Shown piece by piece: positions 47,005 through 64,000 of a stretch of DNA of 64,000 bases. The DNA comes from a virus (lineage: Duplodnaviria; Caudoviricetes). Made by a program: the position numbers and the translations under genes. The stretch's first letter is position 1. Every line of letters begins with the position of its first letter. The notes beneath the pieces are model-generated. The model was not told where the DNA came from. It saw only the letters and a program-made list of their open reading frames with translations, and did no database searches. The stretch covers positions 12,333 to 76,332 of the IMG/VR virus record IMGVR_UViG_2643221568_000002. One strand, 5' to 3'.

Positions 47005-48159
47005 TCATTTGGTCGATGGCTTTCTAGCAGATTGGATTGCGGCGTCAACCTGCTCCGCGGCGTTTGCTTGCATCCCCGGCATTACGTGGGAATAGAGGTC
47101 GAGCGTGATCCCGATCGTCGAGTGGCCAAGGCGTTCACTGGCAATCTTTGGGTGGACTCCGGCGGCAAGCAATTGGGTGGCGTGCGAGTGACGCAGATCG
47201 TGAAACCTGATCTTGGGCAAAGAAGTCTTTGCCAGCAAGCGCGTCCACTCGTGGGTGAGCGATACAGGTTTGAGCGCGCTACCGTCCACCTGCGCAACCA
47301 CGAATGAGTCATCATCCGGCCGGATCCCGATTTTCAGTTGTTCCTCTGCCTGGGCGACCCGATGGCGCCTCAGCTCCTCGATCACAGATGAAGACAGAGC
47401 AACGACGCGAGACTTACCGGATTTGGTCTCTTTGTATCGAACGACTGTTCCAACCTGTTCGGCGCTTTGCCTTACTGCGATGGTGGCACCTGTCAGGTCG
47501 ATATCCTTCCAGCGCAAAGCTAGAATTTCCCCTCTGCGAAGCCCGCACAATGAGGCAAGCAGGGCAGGGATGAATACACGGTTCTCGCGGAAGTCATCGA
47601 GCATGATCGCCGTCTGTGGCGCGTCGAACGCTTCCATCTGTTGCTTCTCGACTTTCGGCGGTCGCGTGAGCGCCACAGGATTTCGCTTGAGCAAATCCCA
47701 CTTCACGGCCTGATCCATCGCTGTCAGCATCACGCGGCGGCAGTGATGGACCGTACGTGGCGATAGACCGCCTTTGCCGTCTCTGCGACCATTCTCCAAC
47801 AGATGGCCCCATGCGCCGTCGATACGGGCTGCAGTGAGCTTGTTGAGGGTAATAGAGCCTATAACCGGCGCGATGTTCTTGAGCAGCAGCTCTTCATAGC
47901 GCTGGTGAGTCTTGGGTGAGACGTTGGCTTTCTCATGCTTCAGCCAGCGAATGAAGTAATCGCGCACCGTGGCCTTCGCCGGCTCGACATAGTTGCCGCC
48001 GTTGACCTCGGCCACCAGTCTTGCGCACTCGGTCTCAGCTTGGCGTTTGGTGCCGTGGAATGTGTGCCACTTGCGACGACGCTTGCCTGTCTCGGGATCT
48101 GGAACGTCAAGGACGATTGCCCATTTCCCGGGAGAACGTTCTGTGATGTGGCCTTTCAC
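47005..48159 (-). CDS. int: Tyrosine integrase (ICEBs1/phage-type)
   Basis: GLRRGEILALRWKDID, RFHDLRHSHAT, RLGHSTIGITLDLYSH. Confidence 0.95.
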   Translation of the reverse strand: MKGHITERSPGKWAIVLDVPDPETGKRRRKWHTFHGTKRQAETECARLVAEVNGGNYVEPAKATVRDYFIRWLKHEKANVSPKTHQRYEELLLKNIAPVIGSITLNKLTAARIDGAWGHLLENGRRDGKGGLSPRTVHHCRRVMLTAMDQAVKWDLLKRNPVALTRPPKVEKQQMEAFDAPQTAIMLDDFRENRVFIPALLASLCGLRRGEILALRWKDIDLTGATIAVRQSAEQVGTVVRYKETKSGKSRVVALSSSVIEELRRHRVAQAEEQLKIGIRPDDDSFVVAQVDGSALKPVSLTHEWTRLLAKTSLPKIRFHDLRHSHATQLLAAGVHPKIASERLGHSTIGITLDLYSHVMPGMQANAAEQVDAAIQSARKPSTK

Positions 48160-48602
48160 TTCTTGTCATCCTCTTCGCTTTTAAGCCGCTCTTCGAATAT
48201 GAGAATTCTTTCTTCGATGCCCCACTGTAAAACACGCTCTGCCGCTGCGATTGCTTCTTTTGTGTCTCCGTGTGTTCGCAGCTCGTGTGCAGCGTGGGTG
48301 ACCTTCATCACTTCAATCCAAGCAAGATTAATCGCCTGAGCGATCGCTTCGATATCCTTCTTCTTCTCTGGATGAAGGTCTGCGAACTGAGCGACCTTGT
48401 CGAGAAATGTGTCGAGCGCCACGTCGATCGTTCGCCCTGCATCAATAATCCACTCATCGGTTATCATCCCAATTTTCGCGAGCTTTCTGACCGCGTCTGA
48501 GCGGGTGGATATCCTATTGTTGAATCTCCAATCGTCTATCGCCTGCAGTTCGTCATCCGACATCATAATCGGAACTCTGTTCTCTCGCGGCTTAACCATC
48601 AT
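48156..48602 (-). CDS. Ribbon-helix-helix-like repressor
   Basis: RVPIMMSDDELQAIDDWRFNNRISTRSDAVRKL; divergent from the xis-like gene. Confidence 0.7.
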   Translation of the reverse strand: MMVKPRENRVPIMMSDDELQAIDDWRFNNRISTRSDAVRKLAKIGMITDEWIIDAGRTIDVALDTFLDKVAQFADLHPEKKKDIEAIAQAINLAWIEVMKVTHAAHELRTHGDTKEAIAAAERVLQWGIEERILIFEERLKSEEDDKK

Positions 48603-48620
48603 GCACCCCTAAAGCAGTTT

Positions 48621-48719: not shown

Positions 48720-48745
48720 AACGCTGATTTTTCGGAGCATGTAAA

Positions 48746-48952
48746 ATGACACTCGATGAAGCACTAACAAAACCGACTATTTCGGTACCTGAGGCAGGAA
48801 GACTTTTCTTCGGTCTCGCCCGCAACGCTGCATATGAAGCAGCCAGGAAAGGCGACATCAGCACGATCAAGGTGGGTGGTCGCATTGTGGTGCCTGTCGC
48901 ACCTCTTGCGGCGAAGCTTGGCCTGCATGCCCGCATCGGAGCGGCAGCATGA
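48746..48952 (+). CDS. Excisionase/HTH_17-like DNA-binding protein
   Basis: TISVPEAGRLFFGLARNAAYEAARKGDISTIKVGGRIVVP. Confidence 0.85.
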   Translation: MTLDEALTKPTISVPEAGRLFFGLARNAAYEAARKGDISTIKVGGRIVVPVAPLAAKLGLHARIGAAA

Positions 48953-49389
48953 TCGAACGCCCAGCACTCCCCGATTGGATGCTCGGTCGATCCGACTACG
49001 GCCAGAACGCAAAAGGCCCGGCAGAGGCGGCAACCTCTCCGAGCCATGGTCAAATCCACTCCCCATCACAGGACATAGAAATGAACAAGGCAAGCGATAC
49101 CACGGACGTTTTGAAAAAGAAAGTAAGCGACGAGGCTGTGGCAGATGCCATGCGCACATTGGACGGCGATATCCATGCGTTGCACCACATGTCGGACATC
49201 ACCGCCGAAAGCTTCGATGCCATTTTCGGCCCAGGCAGCCGCATCGAGAAGAGCAAGGAAGGCGTGGCTTTCCGGATCACGCAGCACGAGTTCAATCAGA
49301 TGGCCTTTCTCGTGAACAACGTGGCTGAGCGCTGCCATGACCTCCACAAGCGCTTTCAGTCGGCATGGAGCGGGGAGAAGCTGGCATGA
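48949..49389 (+). CDS. Hypothetical protein (start may be ATG 49081)
   Basis: Coupled ORF; AGGA precedes the internal ATG 49081. Confidence 0.55.
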   Translation: MIERPALPDWMLGRSDYGQNAKGPAEAATSPSHGQIHSPSQDIEMNKASDTTDVLKKKVSDEAVADAMRTLDGDIHALHHMSDITAESFDAIFGPGSRIEKSKEGVAFRITQHEFNQMAFLVNNVAERCHDLHKRFQSAWSGEKLA

Positions 49390-49628
49390 GACAGGCACCC
49401 ATCGAAATCACCCGCGCCCGCATCGAAGCAAAGATCGAGGAGTTGATCGCTCTCCTCGACCTTCTCGACGGGGACGAAAACTTGGAGCCGTATCTTGCTG
49501 GTACCGATCCGGCCCACGTGGACCGAGAGTTGGACGACGAGCGAGAGCCTGAGGAAACCGATCAAAACGGTGACGAGCAGGATACCAGCTTCACCGAGGA
49601 CGAATTTCACACGAGGTTTTTTCAATGA
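49386..49628 (+). CDS. Small acidic hypothetical protein
   Basis: RARIEAKIEELIALLDLLDGDENLEP; ATGA overlap. Confidence 0.65.
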   Translation: MRQAPIEITRARIEAKIEELIALLDLLDGDENLEPYLAGTDPAHVDRELDDEREPEETDQNGDEQDTSFTEDEFHTRFFQ

Positions 49629-49921
49629 CAGATACTCTCACCAACGAAGAGATGGTCGCTCATTGCAACGAGATGTTCGACCGGATTGGTAAAGCCTTCG
49701 GAAGAATTATTTTCGGTAGAGCTGTGATGCTTCAAATCCCGCCTGATGAGGTTGAAGAAGGTATCAACGCTGCGGTGGAAGATAGCCGGGATTACTTCAA
49801 GGAAGGAGGTCTCTGCGACCACGACGCGGATTTAGCCTGCCGCCAGATCAAGTTGGCGATCGTGCTTGAAGGGCAGCGGATCATCAGTGCCCTTCCTGAC
49901 GAGATTGGGGGGATACATTGA
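49625..49921 (+). CDS. Hypothetical protein
   Basis: ATGA-coupled 98-aa ORF. Confidence 0.6.
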   Translation: MTDTLTNEEMVAHCNEMFDRIGKAFGRIIFGRAVMLQIPPDEVEEGINAAVEDSRDYFKEGGLCDHDADLACRQIKLAIVLEGQRIISALPDEIGGIH

Positions 49922-50088
49922 CCAACACCCGCATCGAGGAGGCAGCCAAGTGGCTGTCTCTTCAACAACAACCGCCACAACCGATCATGCAATTTCTTCG
50001 GGATAAGTATTCTCTATCCACCTCAGAAGCAGCAAAAACGTGTACACTAGCAAACTCGTTTCGGGCCGAGCGGAGGACGCGGGATTGA
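49918..50088 (+). CDS. Small hypothetical protein (56 aa, TTG start; below the ORF-track cutoff)
   Basis: Hand translation MTNTRIEEAAKWLSLQQQPPQPIMQFLRDKYSLSTSEAAKTCTLANSFRAERRTRD; TTGA overlaps at both ends. Confidence 0.55.
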   Translation: MTNTRIEEAAKWLSLQQQPPQPIMQFLRDKYSLSTSEAAKTCTLANSFRAERRTRD

Positions 50089-51335
50089 AGGCAGCAAGCA
50101 TTAGTGGGAAACAAGGATCCGAGCGAAATATACTCGGGGCTGCTTCCGCATCTGCACCTGATGATAGCGTCGCGAGAGATGCTGATCTTGGCATCATGCA
50201 CCATCCCAAGCTTTCGCATGTGCTTACGGGAGAACTGTTCCGCCTCCACAATGCCGGATTTTCACTGCTGCCACTCGGATTAAAACGTGAGCCACTGGTG
50301 AAGTTCAGTACCGCAGTTGGTAAGCCTACAAAGCGACTTCCTTTGTCGCTTGTAATAGAAAAAATGGCTGGGGCGGGAAGTGCCAATTACGCCATTCGGC
50401 TTGATGGGCTGTTGGTTGTCGACGTGGATACTGACACTCCAGAGGCCCGCTCCTACGTCGAGCGCCGCTTTGGAAACTCCGCTGTTCAAGTCAAGAGCCC
50501 GCGCGGTATCCATCATTACTTCCAACACGATGGCAAAACGCCGAAAGCGATCCGCCTTCCTGGCATCTCTATCGACTTCAAGGCGGGATGCCAGTCCCTT
50601 ATTGCCGGGCCTTACGCTGAGCGTGCCGATGGGCAGCAGTATCTGCCTTTAAAGGGCAAACTCTTGAGCGTCAGTGCTCTACCACTTTTCACCGATAACG
50701 ATCTGGCGGAGGAAGAGGATTTCGAAGAACCTATGCCACGCTCCGCAACCGGAAAGGTTGCCAGAGGTGATCGCCACCAAAGCCTCAAAAAGCGCGGCAT
50801 GCAGTTGGTTCACACTGCCGAAGACGAGGCGGATCTATTCGACAATTTGCGGCTCTTTCGCGACTGGGAGTGCGATTTCCCGGAAGAGGTCCCGGATAGC
50901 GAAATTGTCTCTCTAGCGCGATGGTTCTGGTTCAAGCGCTGCAATAACGAAATTTGGGGTGGAAGGAATTCTCCCATGGGCATGACGCGAGCTTCGTTCG
51001 ATCAACTAATCAATGTCAGATACGGCGATCAAGCCTGGCTGCTTTATTCGTTCGTGCATTCCAATCACGAACATGTGGGTCGAGAGTTTTCCATTGTCCC
51101 AGAGGCCATTCTCGCCGCGGGGAAGCTGCAAGCTCTCTCCAAAAAGGACATTTACAGAGCCGCCAAGATACTGGTCGATCAAAAGCTTTTGTCCCGAAGG
51201 ACAGTCAGAGATGGCAAGAAGTGCAAGTACCTGTACCGGATAGCTGGGGGGAGACAGAGAGAGAGGTCTGTTGATTACATCCATGCCCATAATGGGAACC
51301 CCAAATTATCGGTTATTGATGGAGGCCAACAATGA
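50085..51335 (+). CDS. Bifunctional primase-polymerase (Prim-Pol) replication protein; start uncertain
   Basis: LLVVDVD, KSPRGIHHYF, IDFK AEP motifs; PriCT-like GDRHQSL...EIVSLARW. Confidence 0.8.
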   Translation: MKAASISGKQGSERNILGAASASAPDDSVARDADLGIMHHPKLSHVLTGELFRLHNAGFSLLPLGLKREPLVKFSTAVGKPTKRLPLSLVIEKMAGAGSANYAIRLDGLLVVDVDTDTPEARSYVERRFGNSAVQVKSPRGIHHYFQHDGKTPKAIRLPGISIDFKAGCQSLIAGPYAERADGQQYLPLKGKLLSVSALPLFTDNDLAEEEDFEEPMPRSATGKVARGDRHQSLKKRGMQLVHTAEDEADLFDNLRLFRDWECDFPEEVPDSEIVSLARWFWFKRCNNEIWGGRNSPMGMTRASFDQLINVRYGDQAWLLYSFVHSNHEHVGREFSIVPEAILAAGKLQALSKKDIYRAAKILVDQKLLSRRTVRDGKKCKYLYRIAGGRQRERSVDYIHAHNGNPKLSVIDGGQQ

Positions 51336-51514
51336 AGCAGCTTGATTTATTGGAGTGGGCCGAAGCTCGCCCGACTGCAGAAATCCTCGACTGGCACGCA
51401 CCATTCGCTAAGCGGGCGATGTCTCGCATCCATGAATACGATGACGATTGGCCGAAGTCGTTTTACCCGGAGAGCGTCATATCGTTTCCGTCGAGGAAGA
51501 AAGGCGCTGCATGA
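51332..51514 (+). CDS. Hypothetical protein
   Basis: GGAGG RBS, ATGA overlaps at both ends. Confidence 0.6.
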   Translation: MKQLDLLEWAEARPTAEILDWHAPFAKRAMSRIHEYDDDWPKSFYPESVISFPSRKKGAA

Positions 51515-51780
51515 CACTACCGAAGCTGACGCCCGAACGCCTGGACACGATGTTTCCCTCAAGTTCGAGGGAAAGCCGCTCGTCTCTCGCCACGGAATCG
51601 CTCTGGGGTGCGAAGGCGATCAGTCGTTTCATGGGACTGTCAGAAGACACGATATTGCGCCTCGAAAAGCGTGATCCATCATTTCCGGTTCGCCGTCGTG
51701 GCGGCCGGATCTTCACGACCCGCACAGAGATTGTGCTCTGGCTTCAGCCTTCAGTTAAGGATCAGCGCGTAACAAGCTGA
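51511..51780 (+). CDS. HTH DNA-binding protein (candidate late-operon regulator)
   Basis: LWGAKAISRFMGLSEDTILRL...GGRIFTTRTEI. Confidence 0.65.
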   Translation: MTLPKLTPERLDTMFPSSSRESRSSLATESLWGAKAISRFMGLSEDTILRLEKRDPSFPVRRRGGRIFTTRTEIVLWLQPSVKDQRVTS

Positions 51781-51846
51781 TTTTTGCGGCTTTTTGCGGT
51801 TTCTTGCCCGATGGCTAAATGTGCCTGTGGGCGACATTATCCGGCC

Positions 51847-53088
51847 ATGAGCTGGAACCCTTTCAAACGCACGAAGAAAGCACTGACCGACGAGCAGATC
51901 CTCGAAATGCTCGGTGGTGGCATCCCGACAGCAACGGGTCTTGCCGTGTCAGCGGAATCGGCGCTGTGCACGCCAGCGGTCGCCGCCGCAGTCCGTACCA
52001 TCTCGGAAGCCGCTGCATCACTCACTGTCAAGGTCGTTGAGATCAATCCCGACCGGACAGAGACAGAAGTTAAGGATCATCCCGTCACTGCGCTCCTGCG
52101 CGACGAAGCAAACGAGTGGACTTCTGGTTTCGAGTTCATCCGCTCGATCATCGTGGATGCGCTCTGTCGGGACCAAGGCGGGCTTGCCTACGTCAACCGC
52201 GTCAGCGGCGAGGTCCGAGAGATCATCAGATATCGCCCCGGCTTCATCAACGTCGATTATCCCGACGATACCCTGGCACCGCGCTACAGGATCAACGGCT
52301 TCATCCGCAATCCGGCGGACATCATCCATCTGCGCGGACCTTTCGCAAAATCACCGCTGACCCTCTGCCGAGAAGCAATCGGCGTTGCAATGGTTATGGA
52401 GCAGCACGCGGCCCGCTTGTTCGGACGTGGTGCGCGCCCTGGTGGCGTGATCGAGAGCGAAAAGCCGCTTGGCGCTGAAGGCTCGAAGGCCATGATCAAC
52501 GGCTGGAAGACAGCCATGGAAGGCAGCGAGAACGCTGGCCGCACTGCCATCCTCTGGGACGGTGCCAAGTGGAAGCCGATGACGTTCTCCAGCGTGGATG
52601 CACAGTTCCAGCAGCTCCGACTTTTCCAGCTTCAGGAGATTGCGAGAGCGTTCAACATCCCGGCCTCCCTTCTTGGTGACATGACCCGCGCCACATGGAG
52701 CAACGCCGCCGAAATGCAGCGCCAGTTCCTCCAGCTTTGCCTTGAGCCTTGGCTGCGCGCCCTTGAAAGCGCCCTTCGCCGCGCCCTGTTCTCGAAGGAG
52801 GACCGGAAGAAATACGCCATCCGCTTTGATCGCGATGATTTCACCAATGTGGACCTGACAGCCCGCGCCACGGCCATCAGCAGCCTTGTGTCCTCCCGTG
52901 TCATCAACCCCAACACCGCCCGCGAGTGGCTGGACCTGCCGCCATATGACGGCGGGGAAGAATACGCCAATCCGAACACCGGATCGAGCCAACCCGGTAT
53001 GGGCCGCAATGGCGGCCCGACGCTGGATGCCGACGAAACCGGCAACCAAGACGATCCCGACAAGGAGAAGAACGACGATGACGCTTGA
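51847..53088 (+). CDS. HK97-family portal protein
   Basis: AVAAAVRTISEAAASL..IIHLR..SPL..EIARAFNIP..NTAREWLDLPP. Confidence 0.93.
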   Translation: MSWNPFKRTKKALTDEQILEMLGGGIPTATGLAVSAESALCTPAVAAAVRTISEAAASLTVKVVEINPDRTETEVKDHPVTALLRDEANEWTSGFEFIRSIIVDALCRDQGGLAYVNRVSGEVREIIRYRPGFINVDYPDDTLAPRYRINGFIRNPADIIHLRGPFAKSPLTLCREAIGVAMVMEQHAARLFGRGARPGGVIESEKPLGAEGSKAMINGWKTAMEGSENAGRTAILWDGAKWKPMTFSSVDAQFQQLRLFQLQEIARAFNIPASLLGDMTRATWSNAAEMQRQFLQLCLEPWLRALESALRRALFSKEDRKKYAIRFDRDDFTNVDLTARATAISSLVSSRVINPNTAREWLDLPPYDGGEEYANPNTGSSQPGMGRNGGPTLDADETGNQDDPDKEKNDDDA

Positions 53089-53470
53089 CGAGATCAAATC
53101 CAACCTTGTCGACCAGGACAAAGGCCGTTGGCTTCAGGTGGGTGACCCTTGGGACGGCAAGCCGATCGGCCTCAGCCTACTCATTGCTGGTCCCGACAGC
53201 GAGACGCAAAACAAAGCCCGCATCGCCATGATGGACGAATTGGCGGATGCTGCCGACGCCACGGGCAAGGTCTCTTACGAAGGCCGAGAGAAAGCCCGCG
53301 TCAACTGTCTGGCGCGCTGCGTCCTTAATTGGGACGTCGCCGCCGACTTCGGCCTCGATGCCAAGTTCGGCCATGCCGCTGTGGTCAAGATTTTGCAGGT
53401 GTCGTGGATACAGCACCAGGTCGATGCCTTCGCCGCCGATCGCGCTAACTTCCGCAGCGAGGTGGCGTGA
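53078..53470 (+). CDS. Tail assembly chaperone, G-type part
   Basis: IAGPDS...LARCVLNWD...WIQHQVDAFAADRANF resembles siphovirus tail chaperones; AAGGAG RBS. Confidence 0.6.
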   Translation: MTLDEIKSNLVDQDKGRWLQVGDPWDGKPIGLSLLIAGPDSETQNKARIAMMDELADAADATGKVSYEGREKARVNCLARCVLNWDVAADFGLDAKFGHAAVVKILQVSWIQHQVDAFAADRANFRSEVA

Positions 53471-53973
53471 TGGATCGCCTCTTCATCGAAACCAAAATGA
53501 TTGCGGACGACGCCGGCACAGTATCCGGTCTCGCTTGGAAATTCGGGACGCCGGATCGCGTAGGCGACTGGATTGAACCAGGTGCTTTCAAATCTGCAAA
53601 GCTGCCTATTCCGATGCTCTTCGGCCACGACATGAACGATCCGATCGGCACATGGGACATCGCGACAGAGAAGTCTGACGGCCTCCACATCACCGGCAAG
53701 CTGCTGGTGGACGAGGTTTCCCGAGCCCGCGAAGTTCGGGCCTTGGTCAAATCCGGCGCCGTCCGCGGCCTATCGATCGGCTTCATCACCAAAACCTCGA
53801 GCCCACGCAATGGCGGCGGGCGTCTCATCAAATCTCTTGAGCTTCTGGAAGCGTCTCTCGTGACGATCCCGATGCACCCCGGCGCGAAGGTGACTTCGGC
53901 CAAGTCGGCAGTTGAGGCGATTTCGATCGCCGCTGCCATCAACCGCGCAGCCGCGCATATCGGAAGGAACTGA
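53467..53973 (+). CDS. HK97-family prohead protease
   Basis: DRVGDWIEPGAF, MLFGHD..PIG.W, GLSIGF, LLEASLVTIP. Confidence 0.93.
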   Translation: MMDRLFIETKMIADDAGTVSGLAWKFGTPDRVGDWIEPGAFKSAKLPIPMLFGHDMNDPIGTWDIATEKSDGLHITGKLLVDEVSRAREVRALVKSGAVRGLSIGFITKTSSPRNGGGRLIKSLELLEASLVTIPMHPGAKVTSAKSAVEAISIAAAINRAAAHIGRN

Positions 53974-53974
53974 C

Positions 53975-55622: not shown

Positions 55623-55880
55623 ATGGACCCGTTCAAGCAGTTCCAGCGCGAGCAGTTGGCGACATCTCAGGATGCCTTCAATGTCACTCCGAACGACAAT
55701 GGTGATCTGCCAGCCCCTACCTACGGCGGGTTTTGGGTTTCGACGCCTGGGACCGTCAAAGTGACGACCAAAGCCGGGACAGTTCTGACACTGCCATCAG
55801 GTCAGATTTACTGGAATCTGGTCGTGACGAAGATCTGGGCGACAGGCACCAGCGCCACTGGAATTGTGGGGCTTGTCTGA
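55623..55880 (+). CDS. Head spike base protein (RcGTA Rcc01079-like)
   Basis: AFNVTPNDNGDL...GTVKV...KIWATGTSATGIVGL. Confidence 0.65.
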   Translation: MDPFKQFQREQLATSQDAFNVTPNDNGDLPAPTYGGFWVSTPGTVKVTTKAGTVLTLPSGQIYWNLVVTKIWATGTSATGIVGLV

Positions 55881-56242: not shown

Positions 56243-56727
56243 CCATCAATTCGACAGCCGGTGCTAAGCTCTACATCGGCACCACCAAGGATCAGAAGAG
56301 CGAACCTTATGTGCTTGCAGACTTCTCTGCAGCCAATGCTGTCACTTGGAAGCAGATCAAGCAAATGGAAGGGCTTGGTTCTCTCGGTGATACCAGCGAG
56401 GCCATCACGTTCTCCTCGATCGACGCTAACCGTGTGCAGACACTGAAGGGCCCACGCAACGCAGGCACGATGGAAGTGGTGTGCGGCATCGATTACTCAG
56501 ATGCTGGTCAGCAGGCCCTCATCGCCGCAGAGCGCACCATCCATGATTATGAGTTTCGTCTCGTGTTCAACGATGCACCAGCAGGCGGCACTCCCTCCGA
56601 GCGTCTATTCATCGCCAAGGTCATGAGCCAGAGCGAGCAGTATGACAGCGCCAACAGCGTGATGAAGCTGAACGCCTCGCTCGCCGTCAACTCCAACATC
56701 GTGCGCATCGATGCAGATGAGGCATGA
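56239..56727 (+). CDS. Major tail (tube) protein
   Basis: AGAKLYIG..LGSLGDTSE..LKGPRNAGTM..DAGQQAL..AKVMS. Confidence 0.8.
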   Translation: MTINSTAGAKLYIGTTKDQKSEPYVLADFSAANAVTWKQIKQMEGLGSLGDTSEAITFSSIDANRVQTLKGPRNAGTMEVVCGIDYSDAGQQALIAAERTIHDYEFRLVFNDAPAGGTPSERLFIAKVMSQSEQYDSANSVMKLNASLAVNSNIVRIDADEA

Positions 56728-56830: not shown

Positions 56831-56865
56831 TCTGATTTTGTGAACGTTTGAAAGGAGGCTGTTCG

Positions 56866-57183
56866 ATGATTGTGAACATTGAGCAGATGAAGCAGCAACT
56901 CAACCTTTCCGGCATCCCCGGAACAGACGATGACGCGCTGATCGAGCGCAAGATCAAAGCTGCTCAGGGCCACATCGAACGCCTTCTCGGCTTCAAGATT
57001 GAGGAAACCTATGGCGGCACGGATCAAGGTGAAATTCCGCCAGCACTTGTTGAGGCTGTGTCTCAACTGGCGGCGCACTTCTACGAAAACCGCGAAGCCT
57101 CGCTGATCGGGGTGAACGCTCAGGAACTCCCATTCGGTATCTGGCCGATCATCAACGAATACAGGGAGTATTCCTTTGGCTGA
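56866..57183 (+). CDS. Head-tail connector (HK97 gp6-like)
   Basis: MKQQLN..DDDALIERKIKAA..AVSQLAAHFYENREA; AGGAGG RBS. Confidence 0.88.
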   Translation: MIVNIEQMKQQLNLSGIPGTDDDALIERKIKAAQGHIERLLGFKIEETYGGTDQGEIPPALVEAVSQLAAHFYENREASLIGVNAQELPFGIWPIINEYREYSFG

Positions 57184-57595
57184 CGATGGTGGAATCGGTC
57201 GCATCAAGCAGCGGCTGGCAATGATCCCGAAGGAAGTCCGCACAGCGATGGTGCCGGAGCTGGTGAAGTCGGGCAACGACCTGGCAGTCACGGCACGCAT
57301 CCTTGCGCCACGAGACACAGGGGCTTTGCAGGAGAGCATCACAGTCACGCCGGGTGGATCGAACACCCCGCCATACTCCACGCCCGGTGGCCGCGTCTCG
57401 GTGCCCGAACTGGCCGTCGCTGTGACCGCTGGAAACAAGGATGTCCGCTACGCTCACCTCGTGGAATACGGCACACAGGAGGCCCAGGCGCAGCCGTTTT
57501 TCTGGCCTGCCTTCCGGTTGCTCCGCAAGAAGATCACGGGCCGCATCAAGCGCGCTGCGTCCACTGCCGTGAAAAAGAATTGGGGTGGCCGATGA
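57176..57595 (+). CDS. HK97 gp10-family tail completion protein
   Basis: APRDTGALQESI..YAHLVEYGT..AQPFFWPA. Confidence 0.88.
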   Translation: MADDGGIGRIKQRLAMIPKEVRTAMVPELVKSGNDLAVTARILAPRDTGALQESITVTPGGSNTPPYSTPGGRVSVPELAVAVTAGNKDVRYAHLVEYGTQEAQAQPFFWPAFRLLRKKITGRIKRAASTAVKKNWGGR

Positions 57596-58005
57596 GCGCT
57601 GAACTCGCCCTGCAGAAAGCCATCCGTGCGCGTCTAATATCGGATAATCCGACAATATCGCTCGTCCCGGCGGCGAACATCCTCGATCGCAACGAGCGAC
57701 CCAACCCTCGACCTTTGATCGTCATCGGTGAAGGCCAGAGCGTTGACGAAGGTGACAGCATCGCCCGCACCCTGACACGGGTCTACCTCGACCTGCATGT
57801 GTGGGTCGAGGAGCCATCAACAGAGATCAGCAAGCGCATCGCTGGGGCTATCCGCAAGGCTGTTCAACATGGGAAATTCCCAAGTTCAGACGGCTTCCAC
57901 TTCGCTGACTGCCGTGTGCGCGGCTCCCGCTTCCTCCGCGACCCAGACGGCAAGACCAGCCACGCCATCGTCACCATCGAAGCGCTAGTGCAGGAGGCCG
58001 CATGA
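57592..58005 (+). CDS. Tail terminator (DUF3168)
   Basis: ELALQKAIRARL..LHVW..RDPDGKTSHAIV. Confidence 0.82.
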   Translation: MSAELALQKAIRARLISDNPTISLVPAANILDRNERPNPRPLIVIGEGQSVDEGDSIARTLTRVYLDLHVWVEEPSTEISKRIAGAIRKAVQHGKFPSSDGFHFADCRVRGSRFLRDPDGKTSHAIVTIEALVQEAA

Positions 58006-58319
58006 GATCCGGAAAGCTTGACCGCTCTATCACCGTCCAGAGCTTCACCAGCACCGTGAACGACTACGGCACGCCAATCGAGACGTGGACAGATGTTGCC
58101 ACCGTGCGCGCCCAGATCATCCAGAGCAGCACCGAGGAGTTCCTGACCGGCGGCGCCAACGATGAGACCGTAATCATCTTTCGCACCCATTACTTCGAAG
58201 GCGTCAACACCTCCAGCCAAGTTCTCTACGAGGGACAGACATTCAACGTCCGCGAGGTGAAAGAGATCGGTCGCCGCAAGGGGCTGGACCTGCGCTGTGA
58301 ACGCAAGGTGTCGGCATGA
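58002..58319 (+). CDS. Head closure/head-tail adaptor (SPP1 gp16-like)
   Basis: MRSGKLDRSITVQ..W.DVATVRA..FNVREV. Confidence 0.85.
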   Translation: MRSGKLDRSITVQSFTSTVNDYGTPIETWTDVATVRAQIIQSSTEEFLTGGANDETVIIFRTHYFEGVNTSSQVLYEGQTFNVREVKEIGRRKGLDLRCERKVSA

Positions 58320-58428
58320 AAGAGCTAACCCAGTGCTTCCGCGAGTTTTTTCGGCTTAAGGTAACCTACAGTTACCTTTTAGCTTTTTCGCTTATGGGGG
58401 GATTTTGTCACCTTTTCGGAGGTGCCGC

Positions 58429-58860
58429 ATGAGCAGCAAAGGGACACGCGGGGCAAAGGCCACGCTGAAGGCGATCGACGGCGGTTTGAAGGGTGTGCCG
58501 CACCCCGGTAAAAATTTACCGACCGACATGATCGAGGAGTGGAACACGATTGCCGCCGAAATGGTGCAGCGTGAAATCCTCACGGCATCCATGACTGGCC
58601 TGCTCGAAGCCTACCTGATCGCGATCTGGACAGTGCGTGAATGCCAGAAGGCGATCGAGCAGCATGGCATCCTCACGAAGACAGCCCACGGCAATCTCAA
58701 GCCGAACCCAGCCTCTGGCCTGATGTCGAAGGCGCAGGAAACCGTTGCACGCATGTCGGCAGAGCTTGGACTGACGCCGGCAGCGAGATCGAAGCAGGGT
58801 TTTACTCAGCGTGAGGGAAACTCGAAGGCAGGAGGCGCACCCGATGGCCTCGACGTCTGA
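58429..58860 (+). CDS. terS: Terminase small subunit (P27 family)
   Basis: EEWNTI..LEAY..KPNPA..AELGLTPAARSK; GGAGG RBS. Confidence 0.88.
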   Translation: MSSKGTRGAKATLKAIDGGLKGVPHPGKNLPTDMIEEWNTIAAEMVQREILTASMTGLLEAYLIAIWTVRECQKAIEQHGILTKTAHGNLKPNPASGLMSKAQETVARMSAELGLTPAARSKQGFTQREGNSKAGGAPDGLDV

Positions 58861-60493
58861 CGTGCATGACACACATACCTTCAAGGCCACGCGCCCGGAG
58901 TGGATATTCGACGGAAGCGAGATCGAGGACACGTTCGGCTATGGTGAGCGCGCGGTGGACTTCCTGCGCCGCCTGAAGCATCCGAAGAGCGAGAGCGGTG
59001 ATTTCGAGCTGCCGTTGTTCTGGGAACGTATCGTTCGCCGCATCTACGGCCCGTGCTACCCGAACAAGCGCCGGCAGGTGAAGACGGTTTTCATCCTCCT
59101 GCCGCGTGGCGCCCGCAAGACCACGATGGGCGCAGGCCTCGCATTGCTCCATACGGTGGGCTGGGAGCGCGTTCCGGGTGGTCAGGCCATGGTTGCCGCC
59201 TCTGCCGAAGAAGACGCCCGTATCGCCTACGATGAGGCCGTGGGCATCGTTGCCGAAACCGAGTGGCTACAGTCAGCCATGAAGCCGACCGAAAGCGTGT
59301 TCTATCTGGAGCATCGTAAGAGCAAGGCCACGTTCCGGGCGCTGGCATCCGGCGGCAAGGGCAAACTCGGCAAGACGCCGAACTTCGTTCTGGCCGACGA
59401 GCTGATCAACTGGGAGGGCGAGAACAGCCGGCGTAACTGGCAGGCGATCCGCACAGGCCTGAACAAGGTGCCGAACACGCTCTTGGTCATAATCACCCAG
59501 GCAGGCCGTGGACAGGAGAACCTTGCCTATGAGCTTCTGACCTACGCCCGCAAGGTCCAGTCCGGTGCGATCCACGATCCGAACTTCCTGCCGGTGCTAT
59601 TCGAAAGCCATCCCGACGACGACTGGCAGGATGAAGACCTGTGGCACATGGTCAACCCCGGCCTGGCTGAAGGCTATCCAGATATCGACGGTTTGCGCAC
59701 CATGGCGCGAGAGGCGCAGGAGCGACCATCTGACCGCGACAACTTCCGACAGTTCCATCTGAACTGCTGGCTGGATTACAGCGCGTCCCCGTTCGTCTCC
59801 ATGCCGGTCTATGACGAGGGCAGGGGCATACCGGATATTTCCCGGTTTGAGGCCGACCAGACGCCTTGCTATCTCGGAGTTGACCTTTCCAGCACCAGCG
59901 ACTTGACCGCCGTCGTTGCTGCCTGGGGCGATCGTGAGAGCGGTTATGCTGTCCATCCGTGGTTCTTCCTGCCGAAAGATAACATTCTGCGCAAGGCAGG
60001 GCAGGACGGCGTGAGTTATCCGCTCTGGGAAGAGCAAGGTCTTATCACTCTGACAGATGGCAACGTCGTGGACTTCCATGCCGTGGAAGCAGCGATCGAG
60101 GAGCTATGCGCCCGTTTCAACGTCCGCGAGATCGCCTTCGACCCGCACCTTGCCCGAAATTCGCTGAATAACCTTCAGGACAAAGGCTTTCCCGTGGTGG
60201 AGTTTCGGCAAGGCTGGGTGTCGATGTCGCCAGCCATCAATGAGCTTGAGCGCGCCATTCTCGCCCGACAGTTTCAGCACGGCGGGCACCCGATCCTTCG
60301 CTGGCACTTCGATAACATCGCGATCCGGACCGATACGGCTGGCAACCGTTCTTTCCACAAGGGCAAGAGCAAGGATCGCATTGATGGCGCCGTCGCGACC
60401 GCCATGGCCGTGGCGCGCTGTGCGGCCGGCGAAACGAACATTTCCTCTTACGACACCTTCGACGGTGACATTGACGATTGGAGCCACGCATGA
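58844..60493 (+). CDS. terL: Terminase large subunit (Terminase_1, cos-type)
   Basis: LPRGARKTT, VLADEL, GVDLSSTSDLTA, IAFDP, RIDGAVA. Confidence 0.93.
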   Translation: MASTSDVHDTHTFKATRPEWIFDGSEIEDTFGYGERAVDFLRRLKHPKSESGDFELPLFWERIVRRIYGPCYPNKRRQVKTVFILLPRGARKTTMGAGLALLHTVGWERVPGGQAMVAASAEEDARIAYDEAVGIVAETEWLQSAMKPTESVFYLEHRKSKATFRALASGGKGKLGKTPNFVLADELINWEGENSRRNWQAIRTGLNKVPNTLLVIITQAGRGQENLAYELLTYARKVQSGAIHDPNFLPVLFESHPDDDWQDEDLWHMVNPGLAEGYPDIDGLRTMAREAQERPSDRDNFRQFHLNCWLDYSASPFVSMPVYDEGRGIPDISRFEADQTPCYLGVDLSSTSDLTAVVAAWGDRESGYAVHPWFFLPKDNILRKAGQDGVSYPLWEEQGLITLTDGNVVDFHAVEAAIEELCARFNVREIAFDPHLARNSLNNLQDKGFPVVEFRQGWVSMSPAINELERAILARQFQHGGHPILRWHFDNIAIRTDTAGNRSFHKGKSKDRIDGAVATAMAVARCAAGETNISSYDTFDGDIDDWSHA

Positions 60494-62583
60494 ACGACGA
60501 AGAACGCCTTGTCATCCTGCTCGAAGCCAGGATCAAAGACCTTGAGCGCAACATGGCAAAAGCCAGCGGCACGACCGAACGCGAGTTTCGGAAGATGTCG
60601 ATGTCTTCCAAGCGCGCCACCGACCAGATGGAAAAAGACGCCATCCGCTCAAGCACACGGATCAACCAAGCCATGGCCCAGGTCAGCACGAAGATTGGCT
60701 CGGTCGGCAAAGCATTCGCTGGTGGCCTCGTTGCCGGCGTCGTGGGCGGCGGTATCGCTGGCATCATCACCGAACTGCAGCAGATCGCAAAGGGCGTGGC
60801 CTCGATCGGCGATGAGGCAAAGCGCGCGGGCCTCAGTCTCGAGGCTTTTCAAGAACTCAAATACGTCGCCGAGCAAAACCGGATCGGTGTCGACAGTTTG
60901 GTGGATGGCATCAAGGAACTGAACCTTCGTGCTGACGAATTCATCGCGACTGGTGCAGGCTCTGCTGCTGAATCTTTCGGTCGTCTGGGATACAGCGCCG
61001 AGCAATTGAAGACGAAGCTGAAAGACCCTTCCGCGCTGTTCACCGAGATCATCGGCAAACTGGGGGAACTTGATCGTGCTGCGCAGATCCGCATTGCCGA
61101 CGAACTCTTTGGCGGGACCGGCGGCGAGAAGTTCGTTCAGTTGATCGAGCAAGGCGAAGACGGCATCAAGGCGACGATCCGCGAGGCGCATAGTCTCGGT
61201 GCGGTCATGTCGAAAGAGCTTGTCTCGAAGGCCGATGAACTCGACAGGAAGTTCAACCAGATCACCACGTCTGTCGGTACAGGCCTGAAAACAGCCGTTG
61301 TCGAGGCTGCTGGAGCGCTTCAGGGCTTCCTCAACATTTTCCAGCAGTACGAGCAAGCAAAGCGTGCGTCTGAACTTGGTGCCCAGGTCGGGGCCATGAT
61401 CAACCTACCGCCCGACCCTAACCGCGTGAAGACCGTAGGCAAGACCGGACGCCTGCCAGAAGCCAAAACGCCGCTCCCGTCGCAGGAGGAGCTATCCGCC
61501 AAGTATCTCGCGAACTACCGTGCCGAGCTGGCGCTCACCAATCGCGAACGCTCTATCGCTGCCGAGTCCGAGAAGATCCTGGCCGATGCATCATCAAAGG
61601 GGCTGAAGGTCACCAAAGAGCAGGCCGAGGCGCTTGCGCGTGAAAAGGTTGCCAGAGACGAGAGCGAGGCGTCAGCGAAGAAACTTGGCTCGGAGCGAGA
61701 GCGTGCAGGCAAGCGGGCCGAGGCTGAATCTCAGAAGATCAAAGATCTGATTGCCGAGCTTGAAGAAGAGCTTCGTATCGTCAACCTCTCGGATGAGGCA
61801 AAGCGCGCCTCAGTAGCGTCTCGCGAAGCAGGCGCACACGCCACAGAAGAAGAGCGTCAAAAGATCATCGCTTTGAACGAGGCGATATACCGTGAGCAAG
61901 AGGCTCGCGACGAGGCGGAGAAAAAGCGGGAATACTGGCGCGACATCACCCGGTCAGGCATCGATGATCTGCTCGGTGCGCTGGAGCAGGGAAAGACCTT
62001 CTGGCAGGCCATGGGAGACGTGGCCGTAAACACGCTGAAGCGTATTGCCAGCACCATGCTTGATGAAGGCTTGGACTCCCTCTTTGGCGTCGGCACCGCA
62101 GGATCCGGTGGTCGCGGTGGCATATTCTCCGGACTCTTTTCCAGCATCTTCGGTGGTGGCGGCAAGTTCCCATCCGCTCCTGCTGGTCTGTATGCCAAGG
62201 GCGGCGCCTTCGACAGTGGCGTTCAGATGTTCGCAAATGGCGGTGCCTTCACCAACAAGGTTGTCGACAGCCCCACGTTATTTCCGATGGGGGGCATGGG
62301 CGAAGCCGGTCCAGAAGCGATCATGCCGCTGTCTCGGGATGCATCAGGGCGTCTCGGCGTGAAAGCAGGCGGCAGTGGCGGCGGTGGCGGCGCGCAGCAG
62401 CAGGTTTCAGTGACCAGCGACGTCAAGGTCTCTGTAGACCAGAACGGCAATCTTCAAGCCTATGTTAATCGCACGTCCCAGGAGCAGGCGGCAAAGACGT
62501 TCGGACAAATCGTGAAAAGCAACCAGTGGCCCAATTTGGTCGCCGGCGGCTTTAAAACAGCACGGAGCCATGGAATGCTATGA
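60490..62583 (+). CDS. Short tail tape measure protein
   Basis: Helical, Ala-rich; C-terminal FANGG..MGEAGPEAIMPL..GRLGV lambda-type TMP motif; 697 aa. Confidence 0.85.
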   Translation: MNDEERLVILLEARIKDLERNMAKASGTTEREFRKMSMSSKRATDQMEKDAIRSSTRINQAMAQVSTKIGSVGKAFAGGLVAGVVGGGIAGIITELQQIAKGVASIGDEAKRAGLSLEAFQELKYVAEQNRIGVDSLVDGIKELNLRADEFIATGAGSAAESFGRLGYSAEQLKTKLKDPSALFTEIIGKLGELDRAAQIRIADELFGGTGGEKFVQLIEQGEDGIKATIREAHSLGAVMSKELVSKADELDRKFNQITTSVGTGLKTAVVEAAGALQGFLNIFQQYEQAKRASELGAQVGAMINLPPDPNRVKTVGKTGRLPEAKTPLPSQEELSAKYLANYRAELALTNRERSIAAESEKILADASSKGLKVTKEQAEALAREKVARDESEASAKKLGSERERAGKRAEAESQKIKDLIAELEEELRIVNLSDEAKRASVASREAGAHATEEERQKIIALNEAIYREQEARDEAEKKREYWRDITRSGIDDLLGALEQGKTFWQAMGDVAVNTLKRIASTMLDEGLDSLFGVGTAGSGGRGGIFSGLFSSIFGGGGKFPSAPAGLYAKGGAFDSGVQMFANGGAFTNKVVDSPTLFPMGGMGEAGPEAIMPLSRDASGRLGVKAGGSGGGGGAQQQVSVTSDVKVSVDQNGNLQAYVNRTSQEQAAKTFGQIVKSNQWPNLVAGGFKTARSHGML

Positions 62584-62948
62584 ACGTAGAAAAGCTCCTC
62601 TGCGCCGAGTTGAAGCGCCAGCTCGAAGCCAAAGGTGTGGTCATGACGGCCATACCTTTAGGCGGTGAACTGCTCTGGAAATGGTTCATGGCTCTGCACA
62701 AAACCCGTCAGTCGGGGATGTCTGGACCGCAGCCCATTCAATATCGAGAGATCGAGGCTTACAGCCGTCTCATGGGCGAGGGGATTGAGCCGCGGCACTT
62801 GAAAATCTTGATCGCCATGGATCAGACCTACCTCGATTGCGTGTACAGCCAGCAGGCATCATTGCCCGACGGCGTGAAAGCGTTGCCGCCGGTTTCTGCA
62901 GCGAACATCAACCCCGGCGCTTTCGACGCTATGTTCGGAGGCAGATGA
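62580..62948 (+). CDS. Tail assembly chaperone, T-type part
   Basis: LWKWFMALHKTRQSGMSGPQPIQYREIEAY..ILIAMD..YL resembles the downstream half of G/T chaperones. Confidence 0.65.
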   Translation: MNVEKLLCAELKRQLEAKGVVMTAIPLGGELLWKWFMALHKTRQSGMSGPQPIQYREIEAYSRLMGEGIEPRHLKILIAMDQTYLDCVYSQQASLPDGVKALPPVSAANINPGAFDAMFGGR

Positions 62949-64000
62949 TGGCTTGGAAAGATGGATACTGGAGCGGATGGGAAGAATATCGGAACGGGCC
63001 GAGAAAGAAGGTATCCCTTGCGCCTGTTATGCAGAAGGAGCAACGGAAGCACGTTGTTAGCGAGGTCTTCGATCTCCTCCAAGACTGGCGGAAAACTCCA
63101 TTCGAAAACGAGGGGCCGGTTCGCGCCGGCATTCGATCCGGTTTGTGTCTTAAGGGCGAGGACTGGCACAGAGCGGACCACGAAGTAGAAAGTATTCTGA
63201 CAGCAGCATTTCAGCGCATAGGCGTTCCTCGGCCTTCCTGGGACCAAGGGCAGCGGCAATACACGATCGCAGATGAGGACTGCAATTGGTGCGGTATCGC
63301 CATCTCTGACGAACTACGAGGCGGTGGTCGCGCGTCTCGGTTCTGCTCGACGGTCTGCGCTTCCTCAGCAATCAAGCACAGGGAATGGGAAGGCCACGCC
63401 CATGACAGCAGCGTTTACCGATCGGCTGTGTCGATGGTGAACAGGGGCGGCCGTCCAGATCAGATCTGCGCACACTGTGAGCGGGTCTTCAAGCCGTTCG
63501 GGGAGAACAAAAAGGAACAGAAATACTGCTCGGTGGCGTGCAAGAATCTCGGCATTCGGACGATACCTGAATGCGAATGTCCGACGTGCCACACCACGTT
63601 CAAGCCGCAGGTGGCTGGCAGGAGGTTCTGCTCTCATGAATGCGCTATGGCGCGACCAGTAGAGCCGCGAGAATGTCAGTGCTGCAAAAAGACATTCACG
63701 CCGAAAAACGAGCAAGGTCTAGTTTGCAGCAAATCCTGTCAGATGCGGCTGCACAGGATTCGCAAGGCTGCGAAGCACGGCACGGTCTACAAGCCATTAG
63801 GATCGACGTTTGACGGGAGCTGCCAGCACTGCCGAGAACCGTTCCTTGCGAGGAGCCCAAAGGCAATTTATTGCAGCCCCCGGTGCAATAACCTCGCGGC
63901 GAAGGCAAGGAAGAGACGCAGCGCGAAGGTCATCCCTTTGGTGCCGGTCCACATGCTCACGGCTCAGGTCATCGACGGGTGGTTTGCGAGGGCGGCTTAG
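62945..64000 (+). CDS. Protein with repeated CxxC...(F/Y)CSxxC zinc-ribbon units
   Basis: Five CxxC + CSxxC repeats; stop codon TAG ends exactly at 64000. Confidence 0.7.
   Translation: MMAWKDGYWSGWEEYRNGPRKKVSLAPVMQKEQRKHVVSEVFDLLQDWRKTPFENEGPVRAGIRSGLCLKGEDWHRADHEVESILTAAFQRIGVPRPSWDQGQRQYTIADEDCNWCGIAISDELRGGGRASRFCSTVCASSAIKHREWEGHAHDSSVYRSAVSMVNRGGRPDQICAHCERVFKPFGENKKEQKYCSVACKNLGIRTIPECECPTCHTTFKPQVAGRRFCSHECAMARPVEPRECQCCKKTFTPKNEQGLVCSKSCQMRLHRIRKAAKHGTVYKPLGSTFDGSCQHCREPFLARSPKAIYCSPRCNNLAAKARKRRSAKVIPLVPVHMLTAQVIDGWFARAA

Follow-up and report, generated by a model that had tools for sequence, protein, structure and literature searches.

An alphaproteobacterial integrative element and its relatives that encode a phage head and tail shaft and lack hub, fibre and lysis genes

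The virus record IMGVR_UViG_2643221568_000002 is 76,332 nt long, and the stretch discussed here (the window) is its last 64,000 nt, position 64000 being the end of the record. The subject is the right-hand part of the window, 46889-64000, and on the sequence evidence these 17.1 kb are the left-hand portion of an integrative element of 19,043 bp lodged in the 5' half of a tRNA-Ser gene. The element encodes a complete head together with a tail tube, a tail terminator, a tape measure and a tail assembly chaperone, and hub/J, fibre and lysis genes are absent throughout its family. The most economical reading of this gene content, with a probability of roughly 0.6, is that the element is a helper-dependent satellite, which would set its own head and tail shaft on a borrowed tip and in this way form a chimeric tail. 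The original prediction for this DNA, made from the letters alone, had already proposed a shaft of the element's own on a borrowed tip; gene content and a survey of the family support that proposal, and the dependence on a helper and the borrowing itself are what we infer from them.

The window was annotated by open reading frame (ORF) listing and translation and by profile scans against Pfam, PHROG and NCBIfam, and tRNAs were sought with ARAGORN and Rfam. From the portal to a cysteine-rich protein (51784-64000), the genes form a single plus-strand operon that is tightly or translationally coupled, and the members of this operon that concern the tail shaft and its right-hand neighbour are the following.

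56239..56727, plus strand: tail tube (phrog_158, E 3e-18; AlphaFold2, AF2, fold)
57580..58005, plus strand: tail terminator, gp17-like, Tail_completion_gp17 (PF11367, E 2e-21; phrog_176)
60490..62583, plus strand: tape measure of 697 aa, its ATG at 60490 overlapping the stop of terL (phrog_10574, E 1.6e-140, residues 7-683)
62580..62948, plus strand: tail assembly chaperone Phage_TAC_18 (PF23812, E 2.5e-14, 53.6 bits, cut-off 27)
62942..64000, plus strand: family-specific zinc-ribbon (cysteine-rich) protein, last gene of the operon (alignment and AF2 model)

The identity of the tail tube is confirmed by its predicted fold. An AF2 model made from an alignment of 31 family members (pLDDT 87.6, pTM 0.80) gave 72 Foldseek matches in the PDB at E<=0.001. 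The best of these was the gpV tube of lambda (8k36_A, E 1e-9, TMq 0.73), and the tubes of 80alpha/SaPI1, SPP1 and T1 came next. The tube, the 697-aa tape measure and the zinc-ribbon gene behind it had all been named in the original prediction, and they stand. The gene inventory of the prediction was right as well, but the order is permuted: behind the neck genes come terS and terL (58405-60493) and only then the tape measure, which the PF23812 chaperone follows instead of preceding. Another chaperone-like ORF (phrog_313) is found further left, with portal and protease on either side. The statement in the prediction that tip and lysis genes are not visible agrees with the profile scans, since Pfam, PHROG and NCBIfam gave no lysin, holin, Dit (distal tail protein), hub or fibre family in 47005-64000. 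Apart from the tape measure, hydrophobic segments were found in this part of the window only in antisense shadow ORFs.

The missing genes had been thought possibly to lie beyond position 64000, a point that depends on where the element ends. The features that mark its left boundary are these.

46838..46927, minus strand: tRNA-Ser(tga) (ARAGORN; Rfam 59.6 bits)
46889-46927: att core (attL), 39 bp corresponding to the 5' 39 nt of the tRNA-Ser (contigs of run X1; homologous repeat in Martelella)

Contigs of public sequencing runs were placed on window positions 45001-64000, run X1 being the probable source run. One X1 contig of 19,064 nt spans 46898-64000 and extends 1,961 nt past position 64000; its final 30 nt are a copy of 46889-46918, and both of its ends carry 30 nt of the core. 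A separate contig of 39 nt (46889-46927) has a depth of 244 versus 106 for the element, the left flank has a depth of 99, and a 62.8-kb host contig that starts with 46898-46927 has a depth of 104. On the assumption that contigs break at repeats longer than the word length of the assembler, we take these contigs to represent a unique segment of 19,004 nt with a direct repeat of 39 bp on either side, in which case the excised element would measure 19,043 bp. The second copy of the core, 1,961 nt past 64000 at the end of the X1 contig, is the att site up to which the original prediction had advised reading, and between the stop of the zinc-ribbon gene and this attR there are at most 1,931 nt of element sequence, a length known from contig coordinates alone. 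In Sinorhizobium phage phi2LM21 (MF614627), the distance from Dit to the last annotated tail fibre gene is ~7.2 kb (locus 15686-22889), with more genes following through the holin; the remainder of the element is therefore too short for a tail tip and lysis genes, which resolves the doubt whether they lie downstream. The zinc-ribbon ORF itself is closed, its TAG at 63998-64000 being the last three bases of the record, which suggests that the provirus call was trimmed at a gene end.

Other records bear on the same boundaries. An exact 34-nt pattern from the window end had no match in the genome contigs, and runs X2 and X3, which derive from other organisms, contain relatives about 93% identical (by mismatch counts); these form discrete contigs (19,487 and 19,031 nt), in which the zinc-ribbon gene is followed by ~2.3 kb. 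In Martelella limonii NBRC 109441 an element with an integrase 81% identical to that of the window occupies the same tRNA-Ser(tga), at about 610.6-629.8 kb of contig C1. It is bounded by exact 39-bp repeats, which here too correspond to the 5' 39 nt of the tRNA and are 19,243 bp apart end to end (core at 8586-8624 of locus L010). Only two small minus-strand ORFs separate the Martelella zinc-ribbon gene from attR, after which host genes begin, with rlpA, holB, metG and tatD directly outside the att repeats.

Relatives were gathered by four scans, which gave 58 loci: genome contigs were searched with the tape measure (8 loci) and with terL (14), IMG/VR with terL (35), and metagenome contigs with the zinc-ribbon protein (one locus, L063, 45% identity). 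The family signature, terL followed directly by the tape measure, is present in 38 of the 58 loci, and 34 of these 38 have at least 2,000 nt past the tape measure. When the 34 loci were scored by BLAST at E<=1e-5 against window proteins and reference tail proteins, supplemented by PHROG matches, a procedure that divergent homologues can escape at the BLAST step, the tube was found in 29, the terminator in 31, the chaperone in 26 and the zinc-ribbon gene in 27, and a J, hub or fibre homologue or a lysis gene in none (0/34). The survey of homologues for absent hub, fibre and lysin genes that had been advised at the outset thus gave the expected answer, but Dit is kept in six of the 34 (L018, L033, L036, L041, L042, L054) and a second distal-tail protein in two (L036, L042). 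Judged by sequence, the shaft-only form is one end of a graded family.

The regions downstream of the tape measure were scanned further. With Pfam, 143 downstream ORFs of 12 loci and 29 ORFs of L002, L003, L007 and L008 yielded integrases (tyrosine or serine), cargo and host genes; within the elements themselves, they matched no family of tip, fibre, lysin or holin proteins. The PHROGs scan covered 141 ORFs of 36 loci, that is 139 of the 189 candidates and two extra ORFs of L008, the other 50 candidates being ORFs of genome loci already scanned with Pfam; it returned no lysis family, and its tail matches were confined to Dit, the second distal-tail protein and L008. The latter is a 9.8-kb contig that starts inside the tape measure and continues with the chaperone and then with J-like and 1,034-aa tail proteins, and it may be a complete relative. 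As a control, the canonical-order phages obtained by the same tape-measure scan (L004, L005, L006) carry J-like genes in three of three cases, and two of them carry Dit and the second distal-tail protein. Two candidates were set aside: a "lytic transglycosylase" match (DPBB_1, L003 15248-16273) is located beyond attR, next to holB, metG and tatD, and presumably represents rlpA of the host, and a 222-aa ORF that separates the tape measure from the chaperone in Martelella and Shinella, considered as a divergent Dit, found no support in Pfam, PHROG or BLAST.

Gene order is conserved from the portal to the zinc-ribbon gene in Rhizobium deserti, Shinella kummerowiae, Agrobacterium burrii and Martelella limonii, as well as in many metagenome or provirus records, the recurrent architecture being terL, tape measure, optional Dit, chaperone, zinc-ribbon gene and att. 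Remoter versions, some of which lack both chaperone and zinc-ribbon gene, come from Pelagibacterium, Rhizobium sp. Leaf371, Ancylobacter, Roseovarius and Pseudogemmobacter. The IMG/VR records of the family are mostly about 15-24 kb long, and its members differ in integrase type (tyrosine or serine) and in integration site.

Comparison of the relatives indicates that the tail genes are under purifying selection comparable to that on the head genes. Nei-Gojobori estimates between the window and ten relatives (eight for the tape measure) put dN/dS at 0.09-0.21 in the tube and at 0.11-0.33 in the terminator; the tape measure gave 0.12-0.26 and the chaperone 0.18-0.34. These values are similar to the 0.09-0.31 obtained for terS, Ad1 and Hc1, and all are approximate because dS is often >1. 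Five comparisons of the tube at dS 0.77-0.87 gave dN/dS of 0.17-0.21. Among intact tape measures of the family, the length varies between about 633 and 909 aa, and that of R. deserti has 909 aa.

The nearest deposited phage for the tail module is phi2LM21. Its tape measure is 41% identical to that of the window, and its p45 and p46, which come next, correspond in the same order to the family Dit (50% identity) and second distal-tail protein (62% identity). After p45 and p46, phi2LM21 continues with a small gene, J, fibres, a chitinase and a holin. To judge from these alignments, it looks as if a tail of the phi2LM21 type had been truncated in this family behind the tape measure, behind Dit or behind the gene next to Dit, and then closed by the same chaperone and zinc-ribbon pair. 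The phage itself differs from the element in being a 46.6-kb autonomous virus with canonical gene order, a lambda-type head and p47, besides the J, fibre, chitinase and holin genes, whereas the tip complex and the lysis cassette that characterize an autonomous temperate siphovirus are both absent from the element. As to a possible helper, M. limonii contains, on another contig, C6, a complete siphophage prophage with a J-like gene and a tape measure of 672 aa, the last 78 aa of which are 60% identical to the element's; this is one suggestive helper case and not a pattern.

If the element is a satellite of this kind, its cycle would begin with induction by, or together with, a co-resident siphophage having a tip of the lambda/phi2LM21 type, leading to excision and to replication by the prim-pol protein. 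The element's own 19-kb genome would then be packaged into small capsids made by itself, while its own tube would polymerize around its own tape measure on initiator complexes of the helper tip (Dit, hub, J and fibres). The finished shaft would be capped by the element's terminator and joined to its own neck, and the particles would leave the cell through helper lysis. Tail length usually follows a rule of 0.15 nm per tape-measure residue. In the chimeric tail so formed, the satellite would set the length of the shaft (697 aa, ~105 nm) and the helper the host range.

Several observations weigh against this reading. Tube assembly has never been demonstrated with a satellite supplying the whole shaft on a foreign tip, and 1,931 nt of the element lie outside the sequence read. 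The window record names no helper and the neighbouring prophage is podovirus-like; in R. deserti the same type of query found no second tape measure with a related C-terminus, and the second distal-tail protein was not found in five host genomes with the query used. The Sipho_tail family PF05709 likewise scored in none of the five host genomes, and among the control genomes only in Lactococcus. In the X1 culture the depth of the element equals that of its flanks (106 versus 99 and 104) and gives no sign of excision or replication, and terminal repeats, by which circular or packaged forms were sought, occurred in 0/19 whole-contig loci. Some members of the family are decaying, as seen from the broken copies L021, L047 and L048 and from L026 with its interrupted tape measure, and the dN/dS values have the imprecision already mentioned.

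Some of these points would also fit the main rival reading, a defective lineage, descended from a phi2LM21-like siphophage that lost tip and lysis genes, forms no infectious particles, and persists by integration, vertical descent and occasional co-mobilization. The graded retention of Dit (6/34) and of the second distal-tail gene (2/34) resembles stepwise loss, and the broken copies (L021, L047, L048, L026) and the lack of any excision or packaging signal seen in these data agree with it. However, the junction of tape measure, chaperone and zinc-ribbon gene recurs in 26-27 of the 34 loci, in Rhizobium, Shinella, Agrobacterium, Martelella and metagenomes, and a right-hand junction that recurs in this manner implies inherited architecture, not independent decay. 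The att repeats are exact, the integrases (tyrosine or serine) and their sites are varied, the ORFs are intact with dN/dS of 0.1-0.3 on tube, terminator, tape measure and chaperone, and head modules have been exchanged, the capsid being 93% or ~32% identical beside similar neck genes. A defective lineage is accordingly judged unlikely, and the same recurrence in 34 relatives, with intact ORFs, dN/dS of about 0.1-0.3 and the exact Martelella att repeats, argues against the deletion remnant that the original prediction had listed as a way in which it might fail.

The satellite reading requires a donor of the tip, and the original prediction had also named a gene transfer agent (GTA) in this role. 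Tip and lysis functions would then come from a host GTA of the Rhodobacter capsulatus type (RcGTA) and not from a phage, which is very unlikely. The element does resemble RcGTA in its HK97-type head, its siphovirus-type tail, its occurrence in Alphaproteobacteria and its homologue of the head-spike base gene, and its capsid and protease are 38-40% and 42-43% identical, respectively, to those of co-resident GTA clusters. In addition, a 1,257-1,299-aa Phage-tail_3 ORF typical of RcGTA g15 is present in all five host genomes, the C-terminus of the tape measure is 43-50% identical to ~195-aa cluster tape-measure ORFs in three of the five, and the RcGTA_tape model NF058675 matches at 52 bits. However, the similarity consists of a motif of 59 aa only, the NF058675 score is far under the cut-off of 220, and the same region of the tape measure also matches the lambda tape-measure C-terminal model, likewise under its cut-off. 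Phage-tail_3 also scores in the control E. coli and Caulobacter genomes, so that its presence in 5/5 does not discriminate, and the Dit and second distal-tail protein of the family match phi2LM21 and not the two GTA clusters examined, in which no homologue of the element integrase was found either. GTAs are inherited vertically at one locus and have a tape measure of ~200 aa as well as their own Dit, hub and megatron; to our knowledge, they in general lack an integrase, att sites and replication genes. The element differs in having int, att repeats and prim-pol, and its family sits at varying sites.

The zinc-ribbon protein occupies the place where tip genes might be expected and is the obvious point at which to ask whether a tip protein has escaped recognition. 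It consists of a helical N-domain, five to six CxxC...CSxxC zinc knuckles and a conserved C-terminal peptide, with 16 invariant Cys in an alignment of 24 homologues. The homologues differ in the number of CxxC...CSxxC units but show strong conservation of the helical domain at the N-terminus and of the final ~15 residues, which suggests that the C-terminus may be a docking peptide. The protein belongs to no Pfam or NCBIfam family and an Atlas search led to unnamed clusters only, and its AF2 model (pLDDT 79.6), helical with knuckle repeats, had no PDB fold match at E<=0.001, the best rows being non-significant matches to zinc-finger arrays. The gene was found at E<=1e-10 in 7 of 301 genomes sampled from the order of Martelella, the Martelella genome itself (G001) included.

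An autonomous mini-siphovirus, the unrecognized tip or lysis proteins of which would be the zinc-ribbon protein, small ORFs or products of the remaining 1.9 kb, is hardly probable. Several ORFs do lack a known function, and 1,931 nt are outside the sequence read. Opposed to this are the helical knuckle-repeat model of the zinc-ribbon protein with no match in the PDB at the threshold given, the absence of transmembrane candidates outside shadow ORFs, and the content of the relatives past the zinc-ribbon gene, where the ORFs are small, mostly on the minus strand, and of unknown or DNA-binding families. Furthermore, the members that bear Dit show what a recognizable ancestral tip looked like.

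The helper-dependent satellite is best placed by comparison with known systems. The phage-inducible chromosomal islands that form capsids (cf-PICIs; prototype EcCIEDL933) are defined as elements of 10-15 kb without tail genes, and their transfer is abolished by mutations in the helper tube or tape measure (10.1101/2022.09.08.507074; see also 10.1101/2025.02.11.637232 on transfer). The element is like them a small integrative island with int, regulators and a replication gene and without lysis genes; it has a complete HK97-type capsid, protease, portal, connectors and HNH/terS/terL (here at 51784-60493), and its presumed strategy would be the same, namely to make its own head and take the rest from a helper. 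It differs by the tube, the terminator (PF11367), the tape measure (phrog_10574) and the chaperone (PF23812), by its length of 19,043 bp between att cores (19,243 bp in Martelella) as compared with 10-15 kb, and by the permuted gene order, the prim-pol replication gene and the alphaproteobacterial hosts. The legend of Extended Data Fig. 10 in PMC12987554 mentions putative tmp genes in some cf-PICIs, and some of these tmp-bearing islands might resemble the present family.

A satellite that contributes to the tail has been described in Vibrio cholerae, where the PLEs (phage-inducible chromosomal island-like elements) assemble contractile tails that are chimeric, with tape measure, chaperone and hub supplied by the PLE (Mathur, Boyd and colleagues, Nature 2026, PMC12987554). 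By the same account, the helper is a contractile-tailed lytic phage, the helper capsids are modified, and helper tube, sheath, baseplate components and fibres are hijacked. A tape measure and a tail assembly chaperone are encoded by the PLEs and by the element alike. In contrast, a PLE supplies the hub and takes the helper capsid, whereas the element has no hub and brings its own head, neck and whole non-contractile shaft; there is no sequence relationship between the two. The EPIPs of Mycolicibacterium aichiense, also small satellites with a tape measure gene, encode in addition terS, an adaptor and a stopper, and their tail length differs from that of the helper (PMC12822802). They have a serine integrase and actinobacterial hosts and are described in that preprint (December 2025) as having no tail protein but the tape measure, with no tube or terminator reported; the same source states that tape measures are otherwise not found in satellites. 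The literature searched contained no description of a satellite in which a full head is combined with tube, terminator, tape measure and chaperone.

These systems also suggest a different use for the tail genes, which might serve mainly as weapons that divert or poison helper tail assembly, the element itself using complete helper tails as cf-PICIs do. Island-encoded proteins that interfere with tail assembly have been described (PMC11364771), and in PLE11 a tape measure of its own is coupled to an inhibitor of tail assembly (PMC12987554); in addition, the cargo of some relatives is of defence or toxin-antitoxin kinds (RelA_SpoT in L012, Gp49/HTH_37 in L016). However, the conserved and matching set of tube, terminator, gp10-like protein, Hc1, Ad1, tape measure and chaperone exceeds what interference needs. 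Such a complete and matched set is what would be required to construct a shaft and attach it to the neck that the element makes itself, and this counts against the weapon interpretation, which is quite improbable.

The head, packaging and neck genes of the element, which had been called a full HK97 set in advance, were recovered as such by Pfam and PHROG matches across 51784-60493.

51784..53088, plus strand: portal (PF04860, E 8e-81; phrog_12)
53078..53470, plus strand: small conserved ORF with a chaperone-like PHROG match (phrog_313 "tail assembly chaperone", E 2e-11), conserved in relatives
53467..53973, plus strand: prohead protease S78 (PF04586, E 1e-22)
53975..55222, plus strand: HK97-fold major capsid protein (PF05065, E 3e-59; phrog_10)
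55235..55621, plus strand: conserved head-associated protein of 128 aa (phrog_5707, E 1e-35; weak match to phrog_613 "head protein")
55623..55880, plus strand: head-spike base protein of 85 aa, RcGTA rcc01079 family (NF048002 spike_base, E 7e-19, 68 bits, cut-off 28)
55880..56242, plus strand: HNH endonuclease, packaging accessory (phrog_144, phrog_589)
56848..57183, plus strand: head-tail adaptor Ad1, gp6-like (PF05135, E 4e-15)
57176..57595, plus strand: HK97 gp10-like neck or tail-completion protein (PF04883; phrog_5)
58002..58319, plus strand: head closure protein Hc1 (PF05521, E 7e-22)
58405..58860, plus strand: small terminase terS (PF05119, E 3e-22)
58811..60493, plus strand: large terminase terL (PF20441, PF03354; phrog_9, E 4e-121)

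The product of 53078-53470 had no NCBIfam match. The PHROGs family label "tail fiber" for 55623-55880 was dropped in favour of the head-spike base, on the strength of the NF048002 match. Two types of head module occur with similar neck and tail genes among loci L026-L043, the capsid being 77-93% or ~30-37% identical to that of the window, and the gp10-like protein is 86-96% identical in many of these loci; since the capsid type varies while the gp10-like protein stays similar, modular exchange within the family is indicated. Some relatives have, directly after the tube gene, a second and divergent tube paralogue (26-35% identity) that the window lacks.

L026 7592-8059: divergent tube paralogue
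L027 7598-8065: divergent tube paralogue
L029 7598-8065: divergent tube paralogue
L038 7364-7810: divergent tube paralogue

Five loci from Ancylobacter/Xanthobacteraceae and from IMG/VR (L022, L024, L058, L059, L060) have a terL ~55% identical to that of the window together with portal, protease, capsid, HNH and terS, and neck, tube and tape measure are not detectable in them by BLAST; they look like heads-only, cf-PICI-like cousins. In L022, a protein kinase and a helicase follow terL. The split tape-measure region of L026 (11668-18655) holds two 499-aa ORFs and looks like the result of a disrupting insertion. At the right end of other relatives, cargo includes a RelA_SpoT protein (L012 15768-16829, minus strand), a Gp49/HTH_37 pair (L016 13813-14587) and an O-acetyltransferase (L041 17181-18179, minus strand), which suggests an accessory or defence hotspot near attR.

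The left arm of the element carries the genes for integration, regulation and replication.

47005..48159, minus strand: tyrosine integrase (PF00589, E 3e-23; phrog_1, E 4e-69)
48156..48602, minus strand: putative repressor or ribbon-helix-helix-like regulator, weak match (phrog_4738, E 1e-6, residues 9-46)
48949..50088, plus strand: four small ORFs (146, 87, 98 and 56 aa), divergent from int and repressor, no Pfam family
50040..51335, plus strand: prim-pol-type replication protein (PF09250, E 1.5e-5, 26 bits, cut-off 22.8)
51448..51780, plus strand: excisionase/AlpA-like helix-turn-helix gene at the head of the structural operon (phrog_66, E 7e-5)

The layout is that of an integrase and a weak repressor-like gene on the minus strand, with small ORFs diverging from them on the plus strand, a weak AlpA-like match and replication of the prim-pol type; in cf-PICIs, int stands beside a pair of divergent regulators, and alpA and pri-rep are of PICI type. 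Integrase and prim-pol had been foreseen and are borne out by PF00589 and PF09250 (26 bits); the repressor and xis genes are likewise in place, although their matches are weak (phrog_4738 E 1e-6; phrog_66 E 7e-5), and a NikR N-terminus match to the former (E 0.0075) is far under its cut-off. Of the four small ORFs, which are partly conserved in relatives, only the 56-aa one matches a PHROG (phrog_24797, function unassigned), and the excisionase/AlpA-like gene keeps its position in many relatives. The prim-pol of the window was not found in the Martelella or Pelagibacterium genomes (G001, G002), and its absence from the Martelella element indicates that the replication module is exchangeable.

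The tRNA-Ser gene serves two elements in the window (45359-48159), a prophage with a P4-like integrase at its 3' end and the satellite-like element in its 5' 39 nt. The att core of the latter is thus the 5' half of the tRNA-Ser and not the usual 3' end, so that an integrating element must supply the 5' half of the tRNA and presumably its promoter. The same pair of integrases recurs in the IMG/VR records L032 and L048 (63-64% identity), and in Martelella and L001 there is no adjacent prophage at this site. L001, a contig of a metagenome-assembled genome (6137-11002), has an integrase 97% identical in protein at the same tRNA-Ser and, ~2.5 kb after it, a tape-measure segment 94% identical in DNA to window 61188-62155, the contig ending inside that gene; it represents a mosaic element of much smaller size, or else a mis-assembly. 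It was tried as a near-identical copy that would extend the window and rejected, since it shares only the int region (87% nt) and the 968-nt tape-measure segment (94% nt) in a truncated, different context.

The adjoining prophage encodes terS, terL, portal, internal virion proteins, a tail fibre, an endolysin and a P4-like integrase, and no tube or tape measure was found in it, in agreement with the original prediction, which had held that the neighbouring podovirus could not supply a tip. Within it, a single ORF of 5,101 aa (17793-33098, plus strand) has PHROG matches to DarB-like antirestriction protein (5,466 bits), endolysin/transglycosylase, DNA methyltransferase and helicase, and is probably a giant ejected multifunctional protein.

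Satellites that give structural parts to hybrid virions are an already known kind, of which a gene set comprising head and tail shaft would be a new variant, judging by the literature searched. The evidence is evenly balanced as to whether the family represents widespread alphaproteobacterial satellites that borrow only a tip initiator and lysis functions, with the forms bearing Dit, Dit and the next gene, or heads only documenting stepwise reduction of a siphophage. One practical consequence concerns detection. In the SatelliteFinder model for cf-PICIs, tail and holin profiles are forbidden components (PMC10085698), and by this published description the program should reject the family. Rules that forbid tail genes should in general discard such elements, so that satellite counts in Alphaproteobacteria, including the plant-associated Rhizobium, Agrobacterium and Shinella, are probably too low, while prophage callers will label members of the family as small "proviruses".

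Satellites are usually ranked by the share of the virion that they borrow, which is everything for P4 and PICIs and the whole tail for cf-PICIs. The PLEs (2026) insert a few parts of their own into a helper tail, and the present family, if the reading is true, extends the series nearly to its end. It would then become testable how a tape measure and tube recognize a foreign tip and whether the satellite competes with its helper for tips. Members with none, one or two distal-tail genes coexist, which opens the stepwise reduction from phage to satellite to study.

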